The notes beneath the pieces were generated by a model. The model was given only the letters and a program-made list of their open reading frames with translations. It was not told the DNA's origin and ran no database searches. From Escherichia phage EC3-1, in sequence record PQ571288.1: 44,405 nt of DNA; one strand, 5' to 3'. Shown here piece by piece: positions 23,647 to 24,777 of the stretch. Numbering within the stretch: the stretch's first letter is position 1; each line of letters starts with the position of its first letter. Made by a program: the position numbers and the translations under genes.

Positions 23647-24777
23647 ATGGCCCGGAAGAAAATAACCGACGAACAGTTGCAGGAAGAATTGAACGCCGGT
23701 ATGAAGAATATCGACATCGCCCGTAAATACGGCATCTCAGACCGCGTTATTCGAATCCGTAAAGCGAAGCTGGCTAAGAAAGGCGTAGGCCACGGGCGCG
23801 ACGTTAGCCACCTTGTGCCAGATGGCTACAAGATTAAAGGAACGTCGTCACTTGTGGACGAGTTCGGCAACACTAAGTTGCAATGGGTTAAGACAGATAC
23901 GGACGCCGAGCGTCAGGTCGAGTTGATGAAAGCTGTGATCGAAGGCATGAAGTCAGAGATTACACCAGTTGCGCCTGTTAAAGCGACTCGAGCCAAACGC
24001 GACGATAAACTACTCAATCTTTACACGGTATCTGATTTCCATCTCGGCATGCTGGCATGGGCCGACGAGAGCGGCGACGACTGGGATATGAAAATCGCGG
24101 AAGACCTGTTCTCTCGATGGTTTTATGCTGCGTTTCAGAAAGCACCGGATGCAGGAACAGGAGTTATTAATCTGCTGGGCGACCTTGCGCACTTCGATAG
24201 TCTGGATGCCGTTACACCGGCAAGCGGTCATATTCTTGACGCGGACACGCGCTACCAGAAACTGGTACGCTACATGATTCGTATGGTCCGCCGTGTTGTT
24301 GATATGGCCCTTGTTAAGCATAAAAATGTTCGCTTGCTTATCGTGCAAGGGAACCACGACGAGAGTGGCATGATTTGGTTGGCTGAGATGTTCAGTACGC
24401 TGTATGACAATGAGCCGCGTGTGTTCGTCGATACGTCGCCGGATGTTTACAAGATGGTGCAACACGGAAAAACGACGCTGTTCTTTACACACGGGCATAA
24501 ATGCCGGTTTGAGGTGGTCGAGCCCATTATGATAGCTAAGTTCAGAAAAGCATTTGGCGAAAGCGAGTACAGTTATGCACATGTTGGGCATCTCCACCAC
24601 CAAAAGATCGTAGAAAGCAGGAATATGGTAGTGGAGCAGCATCGCACTCTCGCGGCGAAAGATGCATATGCTTCCCGCGGTGGGTGGATGTCTAAGAGGT
24701 CCGCTAATGTCATAACCTATAGTTCAGAGTTCGGGGAAGTAGGTAGGCTTTCAATCTCACCGGAGATGCTAAGATGA
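23647..24777 (+). CDS. HTH domain fused to calcineurin-like metallophosphoesterase
   Basis: Phosphoesterase motifs in order: DFHLG, GDLAHFD, GNHDE, THGH, GHLHH; N-terminal HTH-like segment NIDIARKYGISDRVIRIRKAKL. Confidence 0.7.
   Translation: MARKKITDEQLQEELNAGMKNIDIARKYGISDRVIRIRKAKLAKKGVGHGRDVSHLVPDGYKIKGTSSLVDEFGNTKLQWVKTDTDAERQVELMKAVIEGMKSEITPVAPVKATRAKRDDKLLNLYTVSDFHLGMLAWADESGDDWDMKIAEDLFSRWFYAAFQKAPDAGTGVINLLGDLAHFDSLDAVTPASGHILDADTRYQKLVRYMIRMVRRVVDMALVKHKNVRLLIVQGNHDESGMIWLAEMFSTLYDNEPRVFVDTSPDVYKMVQHGKTTLFFTHGHKCRFEVVEPIMIAKFRKAFGESEYSYAHVGHLHHQKIVESRNMVVEQHRTLAAKDAYASRGGWMSKRSANVITYSSEFGEVGRLSISPEMLR

Follow-up and report, generated by a model that had tools for sequence, protein, structure and literature searches.

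Several metallophosphoesterases (MPEs) with described activities act on DNA. The Mre11/SbcD nucleases, whose phage versions are T4 gp47 and T5 D13, carry a C-terminal capping domain, and MPE nucleases such as Mre11 are dimers. In DP1, the small subunit of the archaeal polymerase PolD and its 3'-5' proofreading exonuclease, an OB fold stands before the MPE domain. The Pseudomonas putida nuclease MPE, or PdeM, is a ligase-associated DNA-damage-response endonuclease that stands alone and does not depend on Rad50. The lambda Ser/Thr phosphatase NinI and the PPP family belong to the same superfamily and are built on the same metal-binding scaffold. Here we compare with these systems an MPE gene of Escherichia phage EC3-1 (PQ571288.1); the window that we analyzed is the whole 44,405-nucleotide record. 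The encoded protein fuses a helix-turn-helix (HTH) domain and a second small N-terminal module to an MPE domain with intact catalytic motifs, and we put the chances that it is a DNA-directed phosphodiesterase at about even.

The nearest functional precedent comes from the Cluster A mycobacteriophage A10ZJ24. Its Gp48, an early five-motif MPE, acts as a phosphodiesterase, causes damage to the genomic DNA of the host and is required for overcoming host defences (PMC12287305). We propose a role of this kind for the EC3-1 protein below; no N-terminal HTH is mentioned for Gp48 in the part of that report consulted. Mycobacterium phages lie outside the ten top genera in our tblastn search, so any homology to Gp48 is remote.

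The window holds a complete Kagunavirus (Guernseyvirinae) genome, and the nearest records are those of the E. coli phages NTEC3, HSE2 and Golestan. Bases 1-141 are repeated exactly at 44265-44405, which indicates a circularly closed assembly and a complete phage genome of ~44,264 bp. The MPE gene lies at 23647..24777 on the + strand, where the initial annotation had placed it. Its open reading frame (ORF) of 376 codons was confirmed, with an ATG start, a TGA stop and a ribosome-binding site (GAGGA) 7 nt upstream of the ATG. The protein is 98.7% identical to its counterpart in phage NTEC3 (UDG73305) and 94.7% identical to Golestan gp21. Purifying selection on the gene is strong: we counted 117 synonymous and 12 non-synonymous codon changes against the relative L010, at 13% nucleotide divergence.

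Catalytic domain and fold

The AlphaFold2 model of the protein, computed with a 41-sequence alignment as input, has a mean predicted local distance difference test score (pLDDT) of 90.6 and a predicted template modelling score of 0.75. It comprises four parts, namely the HTH (residues 8-44), a linker (45-60), a beta-hairpin with a helix (61-104) and the MPE domain (119-376). The catalytic domain (24001..24774, codons 119-376, + strand) has the beta-sandwich fold of the superfamily and carries motifs I-V of a binuclear MPE. These appear in canonical order as DFHLG (residues 130-134), GDLAHFD (178-184), GNHDE (235-239), THGH (281-284) and GHLHH (314-318), as the initial annotation had read them from the sequence. 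We assessed their conservation in an alignment of 41 family representatives that are 33-50% identical to the query. D130, H132, G178, D179, N236, H237, H282, G283, G314 and H317 are invariant, and H182, D184, D238 and H315 are at least 90% conserved. The conservation of the motif histidines had been named beforehand as a point on which the assignment could fall, and the assignment stands: H132, H237, H282 and H317 are among the invariant residues, and H182 and H315 are conserved at the level just given. The ligand residues are invariant across the representatives, and the binuclear metal site is intact.

A profile search against Pfam had also been proposed as a check. The scores stayed under the curated cut-offs for both Metallophos (24.4 versus 27 bits) and Metallophos_2 (18.3 versus 21.5 bits), while the model shows the MPE fold. 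The sub-threshold scores reflect divergence from the Pfam models and do not contradict the fold. The Metallophos models match just 8-9 of the 41 family members at E ≤ 0.01, and most relatives are without a precomputed Metallophos match. Together with the low scores of the EC3-1 protein, this marks the family as a divergent branch outside formal Pfam coverage.

The initial annotation left a choice between an Mre11/SbcD-like nuclease and a PPP phosphatase, on which motifs II and III are informative. Motif II is GDxxH, in the style of Mre11, versus GDxxDR(G) in the PPP phosphatases, and motif III is GNHD, versus GNHE. The protein thus has the GDxxH, GNHD and GHxH combination of the Mre11/SbcD nuclease domain and lacks the GDxxDRG and GNHE signatures of Ser/Thr phosphatases of the lambda PP type. 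These motifs favour the nuclease or phosphodiesterase side; the margin over small-molecule phosphodiesterases is modest. The names of relatives in GenBank, all of computational origin, point both ways: 'DNA repair exonuclease', '(calcineurin-like) phosphoesterase', 'putative serine/threonine (protein) phosphatase' and 'hypothetical'. A protein phosphatase of the NinI kind, with host or phage proteins as its targets, would agree with the third of these titles and with a fold and metal site common to the PPP enzymes; given motifs II and III, we regard it as very improbable. A nuclease rather than a phosphatase is favoured but unproven, and similarity of fold does not settle the substrate.

Sequence searches of the PDB returned sub-threshold matches only, to FixJ/GerE for the HTH and to the nuclease MPE and Mre11 for motifs II-III. 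The similarity to P. putida MPE/PdeM around motifs II-III is weak (PDB 6nvo, E = 0.34; TIGR04123, E = 0.42), and the likeness to it lies rather in the proposal of a nuclease that works alone, independently of Rad50. The DP1 comparison differs at the N-terminus, where the EC3-1 model has the HTH and hairpin in the place of the OB fold. The EC3-1 DNA polymerase matches phrog_17 'DNA polymerase'; we found no DP2-like protein among the large EC3-1 ORFs, and no DP2 partner is annotated in Golestan. Phage T1 possesses the MPE gene and has no DNA polymerase annotated in its record, so a proofreading role cannot be general in the family.

The N-terminal DNA-binding module

The first 46 codons (23647..23784, + strand) encode a predicted three-helix HTH DNA-binding domain, with helices at residues 8-16, 21-28 and 32-44. 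The model is confident here (pLDDT 86-91 over residues 11-40), and confidence is low in the linker that follows. The match of this segment to the Pfam GerE/LuxR model is weak (E = 0.012, under its cut-off). Across the family, N-termini match Sigma70_r4(_2), HTH_23, HTH_8 (2.6e-7), HTH_1, GerE and other models, and NCBI gives some members the title 'winged helix-turn-helix domain-containing protein'. The N-terminal HTH proposed at the outset is therefore borne out by the modelled helices, by the GerE match and by the matches in family members, and with it the structural claim of an HTH fused to a calcineurin-like MPE. The fusion is the standard architecture of its family and is not peculiar to the group of genes in which it lies in EC3-1.

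The HTH is followed by a family-specific beta-hairpin and helix module (23818..23958, codons 58-104, + strand) with the pattern PxGxxxKGxSxL...QWVKT. Its strands span residues 61-70 and 76-85 and its helix residues 87-104; among the 41 representatives G74 is invariant and W80 is at least 90% conserved. Longer family members carry additional elements before the same catalytic domain, such as a second HTH (P0132) or a homing-endonuclease-associated DNA-binding repeat (P0372 and P0381). Salmonella phage KE17, a Jerseyvirus (locus L008, 3001-4155), has a mosaic allele. Its residues 1-100, comprising the HTH and hairpin, are near-identical to the ordinary Jerseyvirus allele, and its catalytic domain is far more divergent, with 55% overall identity to the EC3-1 protein. 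The varied and doubled N-termini and the KE17 mosaic indicate that the N-terminus is an exchangeable DNA-binding module, and this provides the best indirect argument for DNA as the substrate.

The same observations bear on the idea of an anti-defence phosphodiesterase that would, early in infection, hydrolyse second messengers (cyclic oligonucleotides or cyclic nucleoside monophosphates of CBASS, Pycsar or type III CRISPR systems) or further small signals of phosphodiester or pyrophosphate type. A conserved DNA-binding N-terminus that is sometimes doubled or exchanged for homing-endonuclease repeats has no obvious use in a small-molecule hydrolase. The gene is also syntenic across whole phage families, a pattern more like that of core genes than of sporadic counter-defence genes, and PADLOC returned no match for the protein. 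We consider this explanation improbable.

Family and gene neighbourhood

The protein belongs to PHROG 704 'DNA repair exonuclease' (VOG9929), whose profile it matches from end to end (E = 1.1e-164, residues 4-375 versus profile positions 2-389 of 390). By tblastn it was found in 2037 of 50,697 phage records, with a query coverage of 80% or more in 1956 of them. When 1.84 billion cluster representatives were searched exhaustively with HMMER, 4653 clusters at 50% identity were retrieved with E ≤ 1e-3 and 1147 with E ≤ 1e-30. The carriers identified by tblastn include Kagunaviruses, Jerseyviruses, Dhillonvirus, T1-like Drexlerviridae, Klebsiella weberviruses and Jedunavirus, as well as phages of Vibrio, Campylobacter, Flavobacterium and Rhodobacter and the Rhizobium phage 16-3. 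The PHROG 704 proteins of NTEC3, Golestan (gp21), T1 (ST16) and 16-3 (p044) share both architecture and length with the EC3-1 protein, and within the Guernseyvirinae the gene also keeps its syntenic position. The EC3-1 gene is thus an ordinary, near-identical copy of an already annotated gene in a large catalogued family.

We compared 89 MPE loci by ORF calling and clustering. In the Guernseyvirinae the pair formed by a superinfection-immunity gene and the MPE gene is constant, whereas the contents of the slot that follows it vary. This slot contains a gene of 76 amino acids alone, an HNH gene with the 76-amino-acid gene, small unknown genes, an Ant-like gene or a two-gene module. The module consists of a protein with a HAD_PNKP 3'-phosphatase domain (Pfam, 4.5e-20), which databases label 'polynucleotide kinase' although it is without a kinase domain, and a deoxynucleoside monophosphate (dNMP) kinase (phrog_139, 1.5e-43; Pfam DNMK, 1e-21 for a cluster member). 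It directly follows the MPE gene in 16 loci from three lineages, namely other Kagunaviruses, a group of six loci (L032-L037) and Jedunavirus; examples are the Golestan locus (11679-12721 of L006) and a second locus (1904-3019 of L005). Elsewhere the MPE gene stands before the lysis cassette (T1-like phages), before the terminase genes (Dhillonvirus) or before tail genes. Among functional neighbours, only nucleotide or DNA-end enzymes thus recur, which supports a nucleic-acid role, though not strongly.

These neighbours could also be read as a sign of nucleic-acid end healing. The MPE would then be a 2',3'-cyclic phosphodiesterase or 3'-phosphatase acting on broken RNA (tRNA) or DNA ends beside PNKP-type enzymes, and would reverse damage by anticodon nucleases or other defence nucleases. 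There is a precedent in Clostridium thermocellum Pnkp, in which an MPE domain does end healing, and besides the three lineages with the HAD_PNKP gene directly after the MPE gene, T1 has such a gene as well (ST64, phrog_415 'polynucleotide kinase'). However, the accompanying P-loop kinase belongs to the dNMP-kinase family and is not a polynucleotide 5'-kinase, the phosphatase/kinase pair is absent from the EC3-1 genome, and the annotation of its close relative Golestan lists neither an RNA nor a DNA ligase. The N-terminal HTH, moreover, points to duplex DNA and not to tRNA. End healing is in our view unlikely.

In Dhillonvirus and certain other lineages the MPE gene lies just upstream of the terminase genes, and we considered whether the MPE substitutes for a small terminase subunit. 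We rejected this: Dhillonvirus has its own TerS (GP3_package), and the genes of 566 and 529 amino acids that follow the MPE gene in ~100-kb contigs, considered as terminase candidates, proved to be phrog_1014 and a tail sheath gene.

In EC3-1 the island named in the initial annotation consists of four + strand genes between - strand tail genes, and the MPE gene stands second among them. The tape-measure gene and chaperones (20130-23240) lie on one side, and a convergent tail protein gene (25517-26692, - strand) lies on the other. The order within the island is a promoter-like element, an immunity gene of 63 amino acids, the MPE gene, an HNH gene, the 76-amino-acid gene and a terminator. The immunity gene (23418..23609, + strand) encodes a superinfection immunity membrane protein (Pfam Imm_superinfect, E = 1.3e-13; phrog_1039 'immunity to superinfection', E = 1.5e-23).

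The promoter-like element upstream of it, TTGCAC-N17-TACTAT (23348..23376, + strand), is of a repeated early-type form that we call class B. The 29-nt element recurs unchanged at 185-213 on the - strand, and related copies lie at 32528-32563 and ~43039-43068, each facing small accessory genes. The element scores 7 of 12 against the sigma-70 consensus, and a generic promoter scan did not report it. Its repetition before clusters of accessory genes suggests that these genes, including those of the island, may be expressed early by the host RNA polymerase.

The -10 hexamer of the island promoter is overlapped by the palindrome AATAGGATACTATT (AATAG-N4-CTATT; 23364..23377). The genome contains eight exact 14-nt copies of AATAG-N4-CTATT (starting at 184, 4024, 6760, 10322, 23364, 32544, 43039 and 43197) versus 0.04 expected, all of them in promoter-like intergenic DNA. 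Three TTGACA-N17-TATAGT promoters that precede replication genes carry the palindrome in their spacer, and four TTGCAC-type promoters that precede accessory genes carry it over the -10. Ahead of the island it is retained in all Guernseyvirinae loci compared, in Kagunavirus as well as Jerseyvirus. It looks like a putative genome-wide operator for a phage regulator.

One candidate for that regulator is the MPE protein itself, which would then be mainly a transcription regulator. Its HTH would bind these operators at early and middle promoters, including its own, and the MPE domain would serve for dimerisation or as an effector domain. The number and placement of the palindromes agree with this, a dimeric MPE would fit a palindromic site, and the N-terminus has a weak match to phrog_836 'late transcriptional activator'. 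Yet the palindrome is identical in Kagunavirus and Jerseyvirus while the putative recognition helix differs (SDRVIRIRKAKL versus SRRNVQLRSARL), and this variation against a conserved operator weakens the operator-binding reading. In addition, the palindrome was not found in the Dhillonvirus loci, though their MPE is 72% identical, the invariance of the catalytic residues speaks for an enzyme, and other HTH candidates (Cro/DicA-like and Xis-like genes) are annotated in Golestan. We keep a regulatory function as a rival of low probability, one that we find quite hard to credit.

Downstream of the MPE gene, the start codon of an HNH_3 and AP2 homing endonuclease gene (24774..25244, + strand; Pfam HNH_3, E = 4.7e-10; AP2, E = 1e-3; phrog_99, E = 1e-55) overlaps the MPE stop codon (ATGA). 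Bases 24778-25257 are absent from three related loci (L010, L017 and L020), in which the 76-amino-acid gene abuts the MPE gene, so the HNH gene represents a clean 480-bp insertion. Many unrelated lineages have an HNH gene, from one or the other of two different clusters, directly after the HTH-MPE gene. This is the case in 11 of the compared loci and also in T1, where the HNH gene ST15 follows ST16 (42028-42510 of L090), and it suggests that homing has repeatedly targeted the conserved 3' end of the MPE gene.

The last island gene, of 76 amino acids (25258..25488, + strand), matches phrog_2452 (E = 2.4e-36) and phrog_17613 ('ATPase'), families of 235-246 amino acids, over no more than their last ~70 residues. 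It occurs as a stand-alone gene in eight related loci, with or without the HNH gene. We had considered whether the HNH insertion disrupted a longer gene and left this one as a fragment, and ruled this out, given that it stands alone in relatives without the HNH gene and is unrelated to Golestan gp19.

The island is closed by a GC-rich hairpin, AAGGCCCC-GAAA-GGGGCCTT (25493..25512), which was reported by a terminator scan and, as a bidirectional terminator, separates the island from the convergent tail gene. The hairpin family AAGGCCCC-N4-GGGGCCTT has three copies in the genome (12970-13010, 25480-25520 and 32795-32835). A second, opposite-strand mini-island was seen at 32528-32835, inside the head and lysis region. 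It combines the same early-type promoter and palindrome (32528-32563) with the same type of GC hairpin (32795-32835), and its gene (32591-32803) encodes 70 amino acids with a hydrophobic N-terminus.

Proposed function

In the reading that we prefer, the EC3-1 protein would be a catalytically competent binuclear MPE of the branch that contains the DNA exonucleases Mre11, SbcD and PolD-DP1. The HTH, and perhaps the hairpin module too, would tether the enzyme to DNA and so replace Rad50 and the capping domain. Transcribed together with the superinfection-immunity gene from the early-type promoter, it would act early in infection. Its activity would be that of a Mn2+/Mg2+-dependent DNA phosphodiesterase, as a 3'-5' exonuclease, a single-stranded DNA endonuclease or both. 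The favoured roles would be breakdown of the host chromosome that feeds nucleotide salvage, or trimming of DNA ends in phage replication or recombination; for any specific biological role the chances are considerably poorer than for DNA-directed activity as such. The action on host or competitor DNA put forward in the initial annotation is plausible.

Several points weigh against this proposal. The capping domain of Mre11/SbcD has no counterpart in the EC3-1 protein, whose model has nothing beyond the MPE fold, which reaches the last residue (376), and which aligns to Mre11/SbcD over only 187-193 residues; the protein has its own N-terminal HTH and hairpin module instead. No gene for a Rad50/SbcC ATPase was found among the large EC3-1 ORFs or in the collinear Golestan annotation. 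When the family profile was compared with E. coli SbcD, only motif III aligned, with single sequences as the templates here and in the comparison with lambda NinI. The phosphatase/dNMP-kinase pair is next to the MPE gene in only some lineages, and in T1 it is located away from it (ST64/ST62, 4948-6534 of L090) and is split by an HNH gene. It is promoter similarity that points to early timing of the island. Finally, our literature search turned up no functional study of the HTH-MPE family, the gene being mentioned in genome-description papers only.

The proposal can be widened to the family, although we doubt that the wider version holds in full. The HTH-MPE proteins would then be self-sufficient, Rad50-free, DNA-tethered nucleases resembling Mre11 and DP1, and would provide the early host-DNA destruction or processing function of T1-like, Jersey-like and many other siphophages, with a site or state preference of the HTH sparing the phage genome. 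Loss of the classical T1 'gene 2.5' function, host-chromosome degradation, raises transduction frequency, and in this wider reading the HTH-MPE may correspond to this function.

The interest of these observations lies in the family as a whole, the EC3-1 copy itself being nothing unusual. The family is among the commonest phage enzymes without an experimentally assigned function, and its carriers include T1 and phages of the Jersey-, Kaguna- and Webervirus types that are popular for phage therapy. If its members are host-DNA nucleases, this would bear on the transduction safety of therapeutic phages, on nucleotide salvage and on the sensing of infection by defence systems.
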